Positions 1-31,292 of a DNA stretch of 64,000 nucleotides are shown here, piece after piece; positions within the stretch are counted from its first letter, which is position 1; the number at the start of each line of letters is the position of its first letter. The notes beneath the pieces are model-generated. The model was not told the DNA's origin and did no database searches. It saw nothing but the letters and a program-made list of their open reading frames with translations. The position numbers were made by a program, and so were the translations under genes. This stretch comes from a virus. The stretch lies in the IMG/VR virus record IMGVR_UViG_3300045988_096784, one strand, 5' to 3'.

Positions 1-165
1 AAGAATGGAATAATCACAAATATAAACATTTGTGTTACCAACCTTGCGAAGCGGGTTTCCGCAATTAGAACACTTACGTTCCTTTTCCACATTCTGCGGA
101 ACCTTAATCCCGAGAGCCTTACCAAGCTCTGCGAAAGAGTTGAACTTCCCGTGAACATTCTTCAT
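1..165 (-). CDS. hypothetical protein, 5' part only (MKNVHGKFNSFAELGKALGIKVPQNVEKERKCSNCGNPL...), CxxC motif; runs off window start
   Basis: ATG at 165-163 (minus) preceded by AAGGAG 9 nt upstream; open frame to position 1. Confidence 0.5.
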   Translation of the reverse strand, partial: MKNVHGKFNSFAELGKALGIKVPQNVEKERKCSNCGNPLRKVGNTNVYICDYSIL

Positions 166-193
166 AATAGCAATCTCCTTTTCTATTGTTTAA

Positions 194-268
194 TGGTACT
201 CGGTACGGGAGTCGAACCCGTGTTTCTGGCGTGAAAGGCCAGCGTCTTTACCACTTGACTAACCGAGC
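194..268 (-). tRNA. tRNA-Glu (anticodon TTC)
   Basis: Hand-folded cloverleaf: 7-bp acceptor with one G-U, D arm with GG, anticodon loop CTTTCAC, T arm ACGGG-TTCGACT-CCCGT, CCA encoded. Confidence 0.75.
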
Positions 269-520
269 ATATCTGCACTTTTAATAATCTCTTTCTGTCT
301 TATTTAATAATAGCCATTGTTTATTATAAGCTATACTGTCATTACTATATATAAAGAGAATATTAACTTATCTTCTAGTTGGTGAACAGCGGCGTCACTG
401 AAAACCACCTATTTCTATTAAGGACGGAAATAGGAATGCCCTATTGTTCTTATGGCAATGAAATCAATAAAAACCTGTAATCATTAGACGGTATCATATA
501 TAATTATTAGTAGATACCTA

Positions 521-596
521 TGGTGGAACATACGAGGGTCGAACTCGTGACCTCCTGCTTGCAAGGCAGGCGCTCTCCCAACTGAGCTAATGCCCC
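521..596 (-). tRNA. tRNA-Ala (anticodon TGC)
   Basis: GGGGCATTAGCTCAGTTGGGAGAGC...CTTGCAA loop...GGTTCGA; classic tRNA-Ala features, CCA encoded. Confidence 0.85.
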
Positions 597-775
597 ATAT
601 TGTGATTAAGATGATTGGTCGTGTCAATCAAGGAGAACTACGCTCTAATTTATCGGCTACTACAGTCCAATGTGCCAGGCATCAACCTAAAAGGGACACC
701 GCATTGCTGATTCGCTTGCGCGCTATCGCTGCCTATATACGACTTGCGATACTTTGTTCTTTCTTAACCTTACAT

Positions 776-810
776 AAATATTATACAATATTTTTTATTG
801 TTTTTCAAAT
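776..810 (-). promoter_or_regulatory. class-A early promoter (minus orientation TTGAAAAA-N-TATAAT); one of about 14 copies
   Basis: Minus-strand reading TTGAAA-17 nt-TATAAT. Identical >35-bp copy at 1595-1630. Related copies at about 1851-1893, 2205-2250, 2452-2500, 6941-6985, 7895-7950, 8235-8285, 10421-10460, 13405-13450, 21330-21365. Each sits 30-60 nt upstream of a minus-strand start or tRNA. Confidence 0.6.
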
Positions 811-887
811 TGGCGATGACGACGGGGTTTGAACCCGTGACCTTCGGCGTGACAGGCCGACGTTCTAGCCTACTGAACTACGCCACC
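811..887 (-). tRNA. tRNA-Asp (anticodon GTC)
   Basis: Acceptor GGTGGCG/CGTCATC with two G-U pairs, anticodon loop CTGTCAC, T arm ACGGG-TTCAAAC-CCCGT, CCA encoded. Confidence 0.8.
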
Positions 888-991
888 GTATAAGGCGAGG
901 AAGGGTCGTACGCACCCCGTGTGCTTTGCGCCTCGTCGTTCACATATATCACACTTCTGACTTATTGGGCATGGGAAATCAGTAGAAACCA

Positions 992-1078
992 TGGTGCGCA
1001 TGATGGGACTTGAACCCATACGCTCTTACGAACACGAGCACCTCAAGCTCGCCTGTCTGCCGATTCCAGCACACGCGC
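992..1078 (-). tRNA. tRNA-Leu (anticodon GAG), long variable arm
   Basis: Acceptor GCGCGTG/CATGCGC, anticodon loop TTGAGGT, 16-nt variable arm, T arm TGGG-TTCAAGT-CCCA, CCA encoded. Confidence 0.8.
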
Positions 1079-1235
1079 ATATTTCTATGGTATTGATCGA
1101 GTTCCAAGGCTTCCTCTTTTAATACTGACTAGCCATCATAAATGCTTGGCCATTTACGACAAGAAATCCAGTCTTCAACTACGGGCCATAGCTCCGCCGG
1201 TTATATGGGTTTAAGACAATGTCACCGGAACCATC

Positions 1236-1312
1236 TGGTGTTCCCGGCGGGAGTCGAACCCGCAACATCATGGTTCTAAACCACGCGTGTCTGCCTATTG
1301 CACCACGAGAAC
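1236..1312 (-). tRNA. short-variable-arm tRNA with anticodon TAG (reads CUA); identity unclear
   Basis: Acceptor GTTCTCG/CGGGAAC, anticodon stem CGTGG/CCATG, loop TTTAGAA (U33 and A37 present), 5-nt variable region, T arm GCGGG-TTCGACT-CCCGC, CCA encoded. Plus strand cannot fold as a tRNA. Confidence 0.6.
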
Positions 1313-1438
1313 ATAAAAGAGCAACTATTTGTTTCAGAACTACCCGTCGCTCTATTGGGCCAGCCTATTATTTTAGTTCGCAGTGGACGAATTGAGAGTT
1401 TAGGGTTAAAGTCGCGGCACTACTCACAAACTCGACTT

Positions 1439-1515
1439 TGGCGGGAAGGGTGGGGCTCGAACCCACGACATCTTGCTTAACAGGCAAGCGCTCTACTCTT
1501 CTGAGCTACCGACCC
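1439..1515 (-). tRNA. tRNA-Asn (anticodon GTT), acceptor stem with two internal mismatches
   Basis: D arm GCTC-AGAAGAGTA-GAGC, anticodon loop CTGTTAA, T arm GTGGG-TTCGAGC-CCCAC, CCA encoded; acceptor GGGTCGG vs CCTTCCC mispairs at positions 4 and 5. Confidence 0.5.
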
Positions 1516-1594
1516 AAACTCAAGGCAGAATAAATAAACTTTCTTAAACCAAAAATAAGTGTTTTATTTAATAAAAGATTTGCTGTGTCTGCCT

Positions 1595-1630
1595 TATATA
1601 AATATTATACAATATTTTTTATTGTTTTTC
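1595..1630 (-). promoter_or_regulatory. class-A early promoter, exact duplicate of the 776-810 element
   Basis: ataaatattatacaatattttttattgtttttcaaa identical at both sites, flanking the tRNA cluster. Confidence 0.6.
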
Positions 1631-1835
1631 AAAAAAGATTCAGTTGTTTAGCTTCATCATAAGAAATACCAAAGGTATCCTTGAAAGTTGCGTTAAAGTT
1701 CTCCCACTGTTCCTCGGGGCCACCAACTCCACCATTCATAAGCCAAATAGCATCACAAATACTATCCTCATTTTTATAACAAGAAAGAGCCTCGGCCGCG
1801 AGTTGTGCAAGATATAACTTCTTATCCATATGCAA
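1629..1835 (-). CDS. hypothetical protein (68 aa)
   Basis: ORF with AAGGAAG ribosome-binding site and class-A promoter at 1851-1893. Confidence 0.55.
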   Translation of the reverse strand: MHMDKKLYLAQLAAEALSCYKNEDSICDAIWLMNGGVGGPEEQWENFNATFKDTFGISYDEAKQLNLF

Positions 1836-1914
1836 CTTCCTTTCTTACTTTCTATAAATATTATATCATATTTATAAAAATTTTTCAAATGTTTTCAAGA
1901 CGCTAGCTATTTAG

Positions 1915-1987
1915 CTCCGGAAATCGGATTCGAACCGATAATTTTTCACTTTGAGTTGAAATGTCTTAACCATTTGACTATTCTGGA
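1915..1987 (-). tRNA. atypical tRNA-like gene with 8-nt anticodon loop (ACUCAAAG); anticodon ambiguous (CAA or UCA depending on register)
   Basis: Perfect T arm ATCGG-TTCGAAT-CCGAT, acceptor with one A-C mismatch, perfect 5-bp anticodon stem TTTCA/TGAAA enclosing 8 nt, CCA not encoded. Confidence 0.4.
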
Positions 1988-2049
1988 AATAGATTTGCTG
2001 TATGCGTCTTATAGCAAGAGGGCCCTCCTATTGGGTCTGTCCTCTTAAA

Positions 2050-2125
2050 TGGTACTCCGAGCTGGACTCGAACCAAGCATCAAGCGATTATAAGTCGCCC
2101 GTTCTAACCTTTGAACTACCGGAGT
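2050..2125 (-). tRNA. tRNA-Ile (anticodon TAT)
   Basis: Acceptor ACTCCGG/TCGGAGT, anticodon stem GGCGA/TCGCT, loop CTTATAA, T loop TTCGAGT, CCA encoded; T stem slightly imperfect. Confidence 0.6.
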
Positions 2126-2253
2126 ATAGATAAAGTGAGTATTTTATTTAACGCATATCAGCCCCACTCACGCCTTACCTGTGCAATTATTTATAGTTAC
2201 TGTCGATAACTTATATAAATATTATATAATATTTATTTTTATTTTTCAAATAA

Positions 2254-2602: not shown

Positions 2603-2911
2603 TTAATCAGTAATTCCCAACTTGGCTTTAAGTTCCTCAATCTTAGCTTTATCCTCTGGAGCCAACTCAGTTGGAGTAAAACTATTTGCGGATGGAGTAT
2701 CAGAACTTGATGTAGAGAGCGTACTATCTCCTCCGCCCGCAATCGGTGTCTTAGGCATTGTAAGTGATACAGCAATCTGAACAACTTCTCCACTCGCTCC
2801 ATCTTTTACTGAAATGTAAATCTTTTTATCCGAAACAAAAGAGCCTTCAAATGTTGAAAGAATTGTCTTTGTAATTAGGTCTTTCGCGGCATCTCCTCGT
2901 CTAACTGCCAT
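2603..2911 (-). CDS. hypothetical protein (102 aa)
   Basis: ORF abutting the next gene; S/T-rich central region. Confidence 0.5.
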   Translation of the reverse strand: MAVRRGDAAKDLITKTILSTFEGSFVSDKKIYISVKDGASGEVVQIAVSLTMPKTPIAGGGDSTLSTSSSDTPSANSFTPTELAPEDKAKIEELKAKLGITD

Positions 2912-4215
2912 TATTCATCGTCCTCCTCGATTAATCTATCCTCTTGTTTCATTAGATTATGGCAAGTCTTACAATACGGCCTACCATCCATCCAATAAAT
3001 TTTATCTTCATCATATATTCTACGATAACAACTATTACAAGTCAAGAAGAAATCTTCATCTGCCTCTTTCTCTGATATGCAGAAATTACATAAAAATGAA
3101 TCTTCTCTATTTATATGTTCTGTTCCACAACAGGGGCAAATTGGTCTTTCACCAATTTTGATTTGAAAAACATCATTAAAATATAGTTCTTCCACATATT
3201 TATTTTGATCTAAATGCTTTGTATAATCCTCATACTTTCCATTATTTACTGATATAATCGGTGCGTACGTACTAGAAATAACTAAATCGGAATATCCTAA
3301 ATAATCACTCATATCAATTACATCTCTCGTATCATGAATACGTCCACCTGCATTTATTTGATTATATATAAGTTGCTCACTACCCCATTGAGTTTGGATT
3401 ACTTTAAATCCATAATCAAGAGGAAGAGACATATCAAATTTAATCAATTTAAGTAACATATTATGTACACAAGCGAGTAAATCTCTTGATTCATATGGAT
3501 ATTGTCTATTATAATAAATATTTCTGATACCATCTGTATGGACTAACATTCTCCATTTTTTGCTATTCCATTTCATTCCTAATGGAAGACATTTTAGATG
3601 CTCTTGTTTACCATTAGATAAATAAGCAACAATAGTTGTTTTATCTACTAAATAACTAAGATTTCCACTTCTATAATCTCCATCAAGAGACTGACATGAC
3701 CACCAATTTTCATTGTTTTCTGAAATAGTTAAGAAATCAAGAGGATGAATAGAAAGATATAAATATCCTTCTATTTTATTTTCTTGCATATATCTTGAAG
3801 CAGTATCTTGTGCCCATCTAACAATCTCTTGACTGTTAATAAATCGCTTAAAAGATTTGGATAATTTAGAGCCTAGTGGAATATTAAAAGAAGGATATGG
3901 TAATAAAACCCTGTTATCAAAAAATCCTCCTTTATTATCTCTCAAAAATAATTCGAGATCAGTGGTTAAGATTCCGTTTTCATCAAGAGCTTGAATAAAC
4001 TCTTCAAATCTTTTATTCTTCTGCTCTTCTGTCAAAAGAATTTTAATTGGTTCCTTGCTTCTTAATATCAATTCTCCGCCAAAAAGATTTATTATATCTT
4101 TTTTCGCTTCTGCCCATTGTTCGATTAAATTTTTTGAATCGAGATAAAATGGATAATCTTGAGAATGAACAAGTACAGATTCAAAATCATTTTGTAACTT
4201 CTGTAATTCTATCAT
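2911..4215 (-). CDS. hypothetical protein (434 aa) with C-terminal multi-Cys zinc-ribbon-like region
   Basis: Long ORF without TAG; C terminus CPCCG...CNFC...CNSC...CKTC. Confidence 0.6.
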   Translation of the reverse strand: MIELQKLQNDFESVLVHSQDYPFYLDSKNLIEQWAEAKKDIINLFGGELILRSKEPIKILLTEEQKNKRFEEFIQALDENGILTTDLELFLRDNKGGFFDNRVLLPYPSFNIPLGSKLSKSFKRFINSQEIVRWAQDTASRYMQENKIEGYLYLSIHPLDFLTISENNENWWSCQSLDGDYRSGNLSYLVDKTTIVAYLSNGKQEHLKCLPLGMKWNSKKWRMLVHTDGIRNIYYNRQYPYESRDLLACVHNMLLKLIKFDMSLPLDYGFKVIQTQWGSEQLIYNQINAGGRIHDTRDVIDMSDYLGYSDLVISSTYAPIISVNNGKYEDYTKHLDQNKYVEELYFNDVFQIKIGERPICPCCGTEHINREDSFLCNFCISEKEADEDFFLTCNSCYRRIYDEDKIYWMDGRPYCKTCHNLMKQEDRLIEEDDE

Positions 4216-29543: not shown

Positions 29544-29546
29544 TAT

Positions 29547-31292
29547 ATGGCATTAAAAGATTTATTAAACCTTTCAAATAATAATAAGAAAATTGGTCTT
29601 TCCGAAGAAAGAGTTCGTGCGATAATTCCAGCAGCAAGATAGTATATAGCTTTTTGGAGAGAATATCCAGATATGTTTATTGACTTTTTGTAGACCGGCG
29701 GAGACGAGACAAGAAAAAAAGAAATTAATTTTTATTTTTATTAGAGAGTTTTCTTGCGGGCGGCCATGAGATATAAGTATGTATACATGGTATTTCCCCG
29801 TGCCTATTCTAAGTCATTCTTATCAGTAATGGTGCTTATGTGTAGATGTATATTATATCCTGGATGTAAGCTATTTATTACTTCTGGTGGAAAAGAACAG
29901 GCAGCAGGTATTGCAAAAGAAAAAGTCTAGGAAATTTGTAATGCGATTCCCGCACTTTAGAGAGAGATTGATTGGCGAAGAGGTAAGACTTAGGAAGGAA
30001 AAGATTATTGTAAGTATATCTTCAAAAATGGATCTTATTTTGACAACGTCGCGGCTAGAGAATCTTCTCGTGGTAAGCGTAGACATGGAGGATTAATTGA
30101 GGAGTGCGTTGGTGTAGATGGAGATATTTTAAATGAAGTTTTAATCCCTCTAATGAACGTTGATAGAAGATGTTTAGACGGATCTGTTCATGAAGAAGAA
30201 ACACTTAATAAATCTTAGATTTATGTAACTACTGCGGGGTGGAAAAACACATTCCCATATAATAAGTTGATTACTTTGCTAGTGCGCATGATACTAGAAC
30301 CCGAAAAGAGTATTGTAATGGGCGGAACATGGAGAATTCCTGTGCTAGTGGGATTGCAATCCCGCAACTTTGTATAGGAGTTAAAACAAGATGGTACATT
30401 TAATGAAGCATCATTTGATAGAGAGTATGAATCTAAATGGAGTGGCACCGTAGAAGATGCCTTCTTTAATGGTGATGCTTTTGATAGAAGTAGAAAATTG
30501 CTTTAGCCTGAATATGAATCTTCTGGGCGCTCTTCTGCTCAAGCATATTATGTTCTTTCTGTTGATGTAGGAAGAAAGAAATGTCAATCTGTTGTATGTG
30601 TATTTAAAGTAACCCCTCAGTCTCAAGGACCAGCGATTAAGTCTCTTGTTAATATATATACTATGGATGATGAACATTTTGAAGATTAGGCAATTAAGCT
30701 AAAAAGATTATATTATGATTATAAAGCTAAAATTATTGTTATTGACGGTAATGGACTTGGTGCTGGATTGATGGATTATATGGTTAAACCACAAATAGTG
30801 CCAGATACCAATGAAGTTTTTCCTGATTTTGGTGTAGCTAATGATGAAGATGGAGAATATAAACGATTTAGAACAGATAATACAGAATATGATGCTATTT
30901 ATGAAATTAAGGCAAATGCGCCAATTAATACCGAAGCCCATAGCAATGTTTAGACATAGTTGCGGGCTGGAAAGTTAAGATTTTTAATCGACGAAAAAGT
31001 TGCTAGAAATAAATTACTTGGTACCAAGAAAGGTCAAGCCATGAAACCAGAAGAGCGGGCAGAATATTTAAAACCATTCACTTTAACTTCTATATTAAGA
31101 GAAGAAATGCTAAATTTGCGAGAAGAAAATGAGGGTGTAAATATTATTTTAAAACAGGCAAATAAGTCTGTGCCCAAAGATAAATTCTCTGCGCTTGAAT
31201 ATGGATTATATTATATTAAATAGGAAGAAGATAGTAAACGCAAGCGTAAAAGTAGAAGATTTTCAGATTTTATGTTTATGAGTGAGGTGTAA
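29547..31292 (+). CDS. terL: terminase large subunit, about 12 in-frame TAG
   Basis: AAAGGAGG ribosome-binding site; ATPase motifs FPRAYSKSF (Walker A-like) and ESSRGKRRHGGLIEEC (Arg finger/Walker B). C-terminal nuclease region VIDGNGLGAGLMDYM; continuous frame to TAA. Confidence 0.75.

Follow-up and report, generated by a model that had tools for sequence, protein, structure and literature searches.

We analyzed a 64,000-nucleotide (nt) stretch of viral DNA (IMG/VR record IMGVR_UViG_3300045988_096784), referred to below as the window, that carries an array of transfer RNA (tRNA) genes near its left edge, two of which have unusual structures. ARAGORN predicted eight tRNA genes and no more in the window; every one is on the minus strand, within positions 194 to 2125. 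The genes were tested in parallel with the Rfam model RF00005 (gathering score, 29 bits; laxer filters were also applied), and Infernal alignments were made. Seven of the eight matched RF00005 at the gathering score and the remaining one, a tRNA-Leu(GAG) with a long variable arm, was found only with the laxer filters, with the scores of all eight (47.4 to 70.9 bits) lying above 29 bits. By position, the array consists of tRNA-Glu(UUC) (194-268, 70.9 bits), tRNA-Ala(UGC) (521-596, 66.9 bits), tRNA-Asp(GUC) (811-887, 68.4 bits), the long-arm tRNA-Leu(GAG) (992-1078, 47.4 bits), a predicted tRNA-Leu(UAG) of type I with a 5-nt variable loop (1236-1312, or 1239-1312 by Infernal; 'Leu'(tag) in ARAGORN and also matched by RF00005), tRNA-Asn(GUU) (1439-1515, 59.3 bits), an AT-rich tRNA-like gene with the 8-nt anticodon loop ACUCAAAG (1914-1987, or 1915-1987 by Infernal; 'Leu'(caa) in ARAGORN, 49.7 bits), and tRNA-Ile(UAU) (2050-2125, 60.5 bits). 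The last serves AUA codons, and ATA makes up 22.7 per 1,000 codons in the late genes. All but the gene at 1915-1987 encode their CCA end. A preliminary description of this DNA, based on folding by hand, had listed the same eight genes with the same anticodons, and both programs agreed with it.

The array is accompanied by a repeated promoter motif. The extended motif TTGAAA-17-TATAATATTTAT occurs four times without mismatch on the minus strand between 774 and 2249, against an expectation of 0 by chance, and the motif itself is a near-consensus sigma-70-type promoter (TTGAAA-17-TATAAT). The copies are found upstream of tRNA-Ala (774-808), of tRNA-Asn (1598-1632), of an open reading frame (ORF) of 68 amino acids (1854-1888, with the ORF at 1629-1835 on the minus strand), and of tRNA-Ile(UAU) together with the 8-nt-loop gene (2215-2249). 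Because all four stand upstream of genes, the array resembles a set of short, strongly promoted units. Initiation at these sigma-70-type promoters would yield short tRNA transcripts for processing by host RNases; tRNA-Ile(UAU) and the 8-nt-loop gene, only 62 nt apart, are likely to form one such transcript. The 68-amino-acid ORF is embedded between tRNA genes, and small ORFs are likewise interspersed in the arrays of relatives.

Reading of TAG in the late genes

When TAG is read through, stop-free stretches of at least 100 codons double in total length and ORFs of up to ~2,914 amino acids appear; one ORF of ~2,914 codons holds 101 in-frame TAG codons. On the plus strand, the genes that fill the window from ~27.2 kb onward (27252-64000) become long ORFs under this reading, whereas the minus-strand genes at 2.9 to 26 kb are largely open in the standard code. 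The coding is thus sharply split by strand and stage, with TAG-rich late genes on the plus strand and early genes in the standard code on the minus strand. The late genes at 27252-64000 include those for the terminase, the portal, and virion proteins, together with the 2,914-codon ORF, and in them TAG (23.3 per 1,000 codons) is more frequent than CAA (19.6) or CAG (5.0), making it the commonest Gln codon. The premise of the preliminary description that this genome reads TAG is therefore sound.

The terminase gene (29544-31292) contains 13 in-frame TAG codons, and database homologues of the terminase have Q at most of these 13 positions. Taken as the sole evidence for Gln, however, this agreement is circular, since the protein sequences come from reading TAG as Q in the first place. 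We settled the question instead from the DNA of a relative with 77% identity in the terminase protein; its codons at the 13 sites are TAG in four cases, CAA in five, and ACT, GAG, AGA, and AAA in one each. We conclude from these codons that TAG is glutamine in the late genes, and the plus-strand structural genes would use it as their main Gln codon. In the same relative (L064/L065), the genes flanking the terminase match the Pfam families YonG_N and YonD_N, which hints at an SPbeta-like structural module and a host among the Bacillota.

We also tried recoding of TGA and TAA, because it would give a role to the UCA reading of the 8-nt loop described below. Neither found support: read-through of TGA gave no lengthening of the longest ORFs, and read-through of TAA gave only the noise expected at 35% GC.

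The preliminary description had argued that a genome that reads TAG should need a tRNA with the anticodon CUA and had seen none in this DNA. We likewise found no CUA tRNA in the window on either strand with ARAGORN, Rfam, or a direct scan for stem-closed CTA loops. The scan, for NT-CTA-RN loops with at least four of five stem pairs, yielded three candidates with a T-loop-like motif; none of them formed a cloverleaf, and a hidden CUA tRNA was rejected.

The array beyond the window edge

As a megablast search of the late region against GenBank phages gave no match, relatives were sought through IMG/VR proteins and were fetched with the 434-amino-acid protein that adjoins the array (2911-4215, minus strand). 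This protein is identical in four IMG/VR contigs and 81 to 82% identical in two more. The four close contigs have 98 to 99% nucleotide identity to the first 14 kb of the window, and none of them is the window itself. Contig L013, which is 99.3% identical to window positions 1 to 2130, has an array of 31 tRNAs plus a transfer-messenger RNA (tmRNA) across ~18.5 kb. The eight genes of the window are the first part of this array, and 23 further tRNAs and the tmRNA follow beyond the window. Past an AAA-ATPase gene and small ORFs, the order in L013 is Met(cat), Ser(tga), tRNA(CUA), a second short 'Leu'(caa), and Cys(gca). The tRNA(CUA) (L013:17385-17460) is on the same strand as the array and lies past window position 1 by ~15.3 kb. 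Every one of the six related contigs spanning this region has it, namely the near-identical L012, L013, L014, and L017 and the more distant L015 and L016; in each, a Gln-like tRNA(CUA) stands in the block Ser(tga)-Sup(cta)-Leu(caa)-Cys(gca). Both the U1.U72 mismatch and the G73 of the L013 copy fit Gln identity.

Judging from these close relatives, the genome from which the window derives would have a tRNA(CUA) outside the window, and it appears to be a TAG-reading genome without such a tRNA because the window boundary cuts the array. The eight genes would be the promoter-proximal end of an early-strand tRNA region of ~18 to 18.5 kb with 31 tRNAs and a tmRNA, and the Gln-like tRNA(CUA) of the phage would decode TAG from outside the window, so that neither of the two unusual tRNAs has to read TAG. 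Of the puzzle set by the preliminary description, then, the observation stands, since TAG is read and the window has no CUA tRNA, but the paradox is removed by a suppressor that relatives carry beyond the edge.

The best GenBank nucleotide match is phage phAss-1, with 77% identity over 10% of a 2.4-kb query, and is confined to tRNA genes. In phAss-1, TAG is read as Gln in 41 ORFs, and the phage has 36 tRNA genes, Gln-type suppressor (Sup-CTA) genes, and no dedicated synthetase (PMC10607447); the taxonomy line of its GenBank entry (OQ749652) reads "Caudoviricetes code 15 clade." The window's phage is like phAss-1 (PMC10607447; OQ749652) in reading TAG as Gln in late and structural genes and in having a large tRNA set and a Gln-type Sup-CTA, and the examined part of the phAss-1 genome likewise has a long tRNA array interspersed with small ORFs. 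Unlike phAss-1, which has three Sup-CTA genes, the window's lineage has one in the region seen, and it has a tmRNA within the array (in L013). With TAG at the Gln positions of homologues and a Gln-type Sup-CTA in relatives, it falls among the phAss-1-like TAG-to-Gln phages, a likeness drawn here from code, tRNA set, and nucleotide match. The window's phage resembles, in short, a gut-type, phAss-1-like phage of the code 15 kind with 35% GC and a near-complete tRNA set. The system is already known, because the phAss-1 paper reports the same biology (PMC10607447).

Some variation was seen in the extended arrays. The tmRNA, with the tag peptide DNDYFENYLAA, is found at L013:6660-6975 (also at L001:18745-19060 and L011:2025-2340), inside the array of the near-identical contig 091188; in that contig it lies just past the left edge of the window, a position at which other close relatives have no tmRNA. 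The Gln-like tRNA(CUA) is 75 to 76 nt long in the window's lineage, but many relatives have a form of 88 to 97 nt whose variable arm is long. Conversely, tRNA-Cys(GCA, U73) has a long arm and 87 nt in the window's lineage (L013:18433-18519) versus 76 to 77 nt in others. The length of the variable arm is plastic across the phage family (L019-L030, L038, L043, L045, L054, L055, and L057; e.g., L021:2739-2829).

The 8-nt-loop gene and its AT-rich relatives

In the gene at 1915-1987, a 5-base-pair (bp) anticodon stem (UUUCA/UGAAA) encloses the 8-nt loop in the Infernal alignment and in the minimum free energy (MFE) fold alike, and the gene is followed by CUAAAU with no encoded CCA; the 5-bp stem, the 8-nt loop, and the missing CCA had been described at the outset. 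The triplet depends on where the extra base is placed: with the base 3' of U33 it would be UCA, whereas Infernal and ARAGORN both put the base 5' of U33, which gives CAA and keeps U33 and A37. Several features are of the kind seen in pseudogenes. The gene has an A4.C69 mismatch (and G73) and a GC content of 0.38, and among the 31 tRNAs of L013 its counterpart alone lacks CCA (GC, 0.36 to 0.38 versus 0.49 to 0.67). Its MFE cloverleaf, at -10.7 kcal/mol, is as stable as shuffled sequence (z = -0.04), and a G-to-A change in one near-identical strain (L001/L013) breaks a pair of the anticodon stem. It is also only 78% identical to its counterpart in L006, which has a 7-nt loop (AUUGAAA) with the anticodon UGA, whereas the orthologues of Glu, Ala, Leu(gag), and Leu(tag) are 97 to 100% identical.

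Other signs are contrary to a pseudogene and come from the family to which the gene belongs. With its D arm, TAGTCAAAWGGTTAAGACATT, as the query, 26 IMG/VR contigs were identified that together carry 13 distinct sequences, throughout which the D arm is invariant; the acceptor, anticodon, and T stems are held by compensatory changes, and U33 and A37 are present in every 7-nt loop. The anticodons are almost all different (ACA, GCA, UAA, UGA, UUA, UCC, and CCU), and a second 8-nt loop, CUUGAAAA, occurs in L085. The discriminator base varies, and several members have mismatches at the terminal pairs of the acceptor stem. Among canonical tRNAs, those for Cys and Glu have the D arms closest to that of 1915-1987. 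A Gln or Asn identity, considered from U1-A72 and G73, was rejected as unsupported because the discriminator and the acceptor stem are unconserved in the family. One member, in L069 (match at 2906-2926), has the loop UUUUAAG with the anticodon UUA, which would pair with the ochre stop codon UAA.

The enlarged loop of 1915-1987 is a feature shared with +1 frameshift or quadruplet-decoding tRNAs. As in yeast mitochondrial tRNA-Thr1(UAG) (PMC3113583) and +1 frameshift suppressors such as SufB2, a 5-bp stem encloses 8 nt, with U33 and A37 placeable around a triplet. Unlike those tRNAs, the gene is AT-rich and weakly folding and has no CCA, and its relatives have mostly 7-nt loops and varied anticodons.

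We think it most likely that 1915-1987 is a decoder of marginal or decaying function, with UUG, read through U33-CAA-A37, as its probable codon. It would be a fast-evolving, weakly folding member of the small AT-rich, CCA-less family in which the loop gained a base in this lineage. If it reads UUG it is redundant, because the genome has a second 'Leu' tRNA with the anticodon CAA (L013:18213-18289). On the sequences compared here, it has no share in the recoding of TAG.

The chief alternative is that nonstandard but functional tRNAs are encoded by the 8-nt-loop gene and by its AT-rich relatives, serving either as decoders with the amino acid set by the body and a retargeted anticodon (missense, stop, or +1 frameshift) or as decoys or substitutes that counter host defenses cleaving the anticodon loop. 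The invariance of the D arm while the stems covary would fit such a role, as would the retention of U33 and A37, the range of anticodons (with the ochre suppressor-like UUA among them), the second 8-nt loop, and the consensus promoter upstream of 1915-1987. There are also precedents, since phage tRNAs are reported to escape anticodon nucleases by changes in the anticodon loop (PMC10264068), and natural decoders with 8-nt loops exist, such as yeast mitochondrial tRNA-Thr1 (PMC3113583). We nevertheless regard this alternative as unlikely, given the absent CCA, the unconserved discriminator base, the terminal acceptor mismatches, the very weak fold, the stem-breaking polymorphism among strains that are 98 to 99% identical, and the lack of any sign that TGA or TAA is recoded. 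A shade less likely again is its more specific form, in which the AT-rich family would be a functional device, either a body-defined adaptor whose anticodon is retargeted from lineage to lineage or a decoy for anticodon-loop nucleases. The 8-nt-loop gene offers no present evidence of a new mechanism.

A second set of tRNAs with 8-nt anticodon loops, unrelated to 1915-1987, was seen in other members of the phage family, with the loop GUUAAAAG, or GUUAGAAG in L018. These genes are found at L018:1212-1285, near 9854-9927 in L019-L023, L025, and L027-L030, and at L038:12378-12451, and ARAGORN names them as having the four-base anticodons 'taaa' and 'taga'. Those of L018-L030 are GC-rich and well conserved, with an encoded CCA and a Leu-like GGUAGAC D loop. 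The L038 gene, which ARAGORN calls 'taaa', is AT-rich and without CCA and has the loop CGUAAAAA.

A predicted tRNA-Leu(UAG) with a short variable arm

The gene at 1236-1312 has the anticodon loop UUUAGAA and hence the anticodon UAG, whose cognate codons are CUA and CUG. That it reads CUA and not the stop codon UAG, and that its variable arm is short, had both been seen correctly at the outset. The variable loop (AUGUU in the Infernal alignment) is 5 nt long and includes U48; a type II tRNA-Leu has a long variable arm (>10 nt), which this gene lacks, and we therefore classed it as type I rather than as a canonical type II tRNA-Leu. Its D arm, GUGC-AAUAGGCAG-ACAC, combines a 3-bp D stem with a long D loop (G10-U11-G12-C13, then A14, A15, U16, A17, G18, G19, C20, A20a, and G21, then A22, C23, A24, and C25), and its end, ...GGGAAC-A-CCA, gives the discriminator A73. 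The leucine determinants of Escherichia coli tRNA-Leu are A73, A14, A15-U48, G18G19, and A20a, with the anticodon and the long arm excluded (PMC9976931). All of the corresponding residues (A73, A14, A15, G18G19, A20a, and U48) can be read in 1236-1312, and with U48 present the A15-U48 pair is possible.

In a ranking of 754 distinct tRNAs from related loci by similarity in the D arm, the 36 top non-self neighbors included 33 Leu tRNAs, nearly all of them long-armed (type II). The preliminary description had proposed a comparison with phage tRNA-Gln and suppressor tRNAs, but the body of 1236-1312 resembles Leu tRNAs and not those. Both of the genes that it had set apart from ordinary Leu tRNAs, 1236-1312 and 1915-1987, are called 'Leu' by ARAGORN.

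Comparison with relatives points to selection on the cloverleaf. The gene is identical in four near-identical strains, 99% identical in L006, and 91% identical in L015, where seven differences break no pairs and two are full compensatory double changes. Thirteen short-arm UAG tRNAs from the phage family and phAss-1 could be aligned as a cloverleaf in which the D stem has 3 bp and the variable loop 5 nt, and compensatory double changes were found in 17 of the 20 pairs. The gene stands in the syntenic order Asn-Leu(tag)-Leu(gag)-Asp, and in more distant relatives the same slot is occupied by an 83-nt Leu(tag) with a long arm. With 1236-1312 included, the Leu anticodons of the phage (GAG, UAG, UAA, and CAA) form a complete, nonredundant set, and CUA is used at 7 to 8 per 1,000 codons. 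Across the family, short-arm tRNAs with Leu anticodons comprise 24 distinct sequences at 16 loci, all with A73, as assigned by direct reading of the listed sequences; A73 is constant for the short-arm anticodons UAG, CAA, AAG, and CAG in the family and in phAss-1, which also has 77- to 78-nt short-arm tRNA-Leu(UAG) and (CAG), annotated simply as tRNA-Leu. We conclude that 1236-1312 is a genuine, selected tRNA, with structure and selection evident from the covariation, and that it is predicted to be a tRNA-Leu(UAG) without the long arm.

The long arm of tRNA-Leu has been stated to be universal except in animal mitochondria (PMC9976931). Streptomyces coelicolor, however, has a type I tRNA-Leu(CAA) that is leucylated by its single leucyl-tRNA synthetase (LeuRS), although E. 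coli LeuRS does not charge it (PMC6614811). The gene at 1236-1312 is like this tRNA and animal mitochondrial tRNA-Leu in having a Leu anticodon, a short variable loop, and A14/U8 (PMC6614811, PMC9976931), and like them it occurs beside type II Leu isoacceptors, all of which a single LeuRS would serve. It differs from them in being phage encoded, in having UAG and A73, and in having the 3-bp D stem and long D loop of type II. The preliminary description had called it odd because bacterial Leu tRNAs are long-armed; type I is indeed rare, but it is known in S. coelicolor and mitochondria, and phAss-1 has it too. Type I tRNA-Leu is a rare but documented kind, of which 1236-1312 is a further example. 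Retaining the E. coli-type Leu determinants, it would presumably be charged by the host LeuRS and would serve CUA and CUG.

A different amino acid is conceivable. If 1236-1312 were a class I tRNA charged with something other than leucine, CUA or all CUN codons would be reassigned or mistranslated during infection. Such a reading could appeal to the long arms of nearly all bacterial Leu tRNAs, to the failure of E. coli LeuRS to charge the Streptomyces type I tRNA-Leu (PMC6614811), and to the yeast mitochondrial reassignment of CUN to Thr, which pairs a UAG anticodon with the class I shape (PMC3113583). It is very improbable, however, as the D arm, A73, A15-U48, G18G19, and A20a are all of Leu type, the nearest neighbors are Leu tRNAs, the gene fills the sole gap in the Leu anticodon set of the phage, and A73 is shared by the short-arm UAG, CAA, AAG, and CAG tRNAs across the family and phAss-1. 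That the real gene is the antisense strand of 1236-1312, a CUA amber suppressor on the late-gene strand, is suggested by the reverse complement of the loop (UUCUAAA, with U33, CUA, and A37) and the plus-strand location of the late genes, but we dropped it as next to impossible, since that strand is called neither by ARAGORN nor by Rfam at E ≤ 1, has no T-loop and no D-loop GG, folds no better than shuffled sequence (z = -0.04), and would duplicate a proper tRNA(CUA) located elsewhere (L013).

Taken together, the window probably cuts the larger tRNA array of a phage that reads TAG as Gln, with the tRNA(CUA) outside it, a type I tRNA-Leu at 1236-1312, and a marginal decoder at 1915-1987, and this joint reading accounts best for the sequences compared. 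Several points weigh against parts of it. The position of the tRNA(CUA) is taken from close but nonidentical relatives rather than from the window's own genome. Charging of 1236-1312 by the host LeuRS is not assured, since E. coli LeuRS fails on the Streptomyces type I tRNA-Leu (PMC6614811). The covariation of the cloverleaf, the invariant D arm, the kept U33 and A37, and the strong upstream promoter argue against simple decay of 1915-1987, and the second 8-nt-loop member of its family, in L085, means that the enlarged loop may be tolerated or even used. The array and the recoding are mostly ordinary, and the AT-rich family, with its hypervariable anticodon, is left as a modest unexplained residue and a small, concrete target for study in recoded phages.

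Type I Leu tRNAs occur in many gut and environmental phages of this family, under clear structural selection. Only one bacterial type I tRNA-Leu has been studied biochemically, and because the long arm is otherwise nearly universal (PMC9976931), the phage tRNAs are useful as ready-made natural substrates for a LeuRS that acts without the arm. The CAA tRNA of L013 is a second type I 'Leu' tRNA, 77 nt long, with A73 and an encoded CCA.

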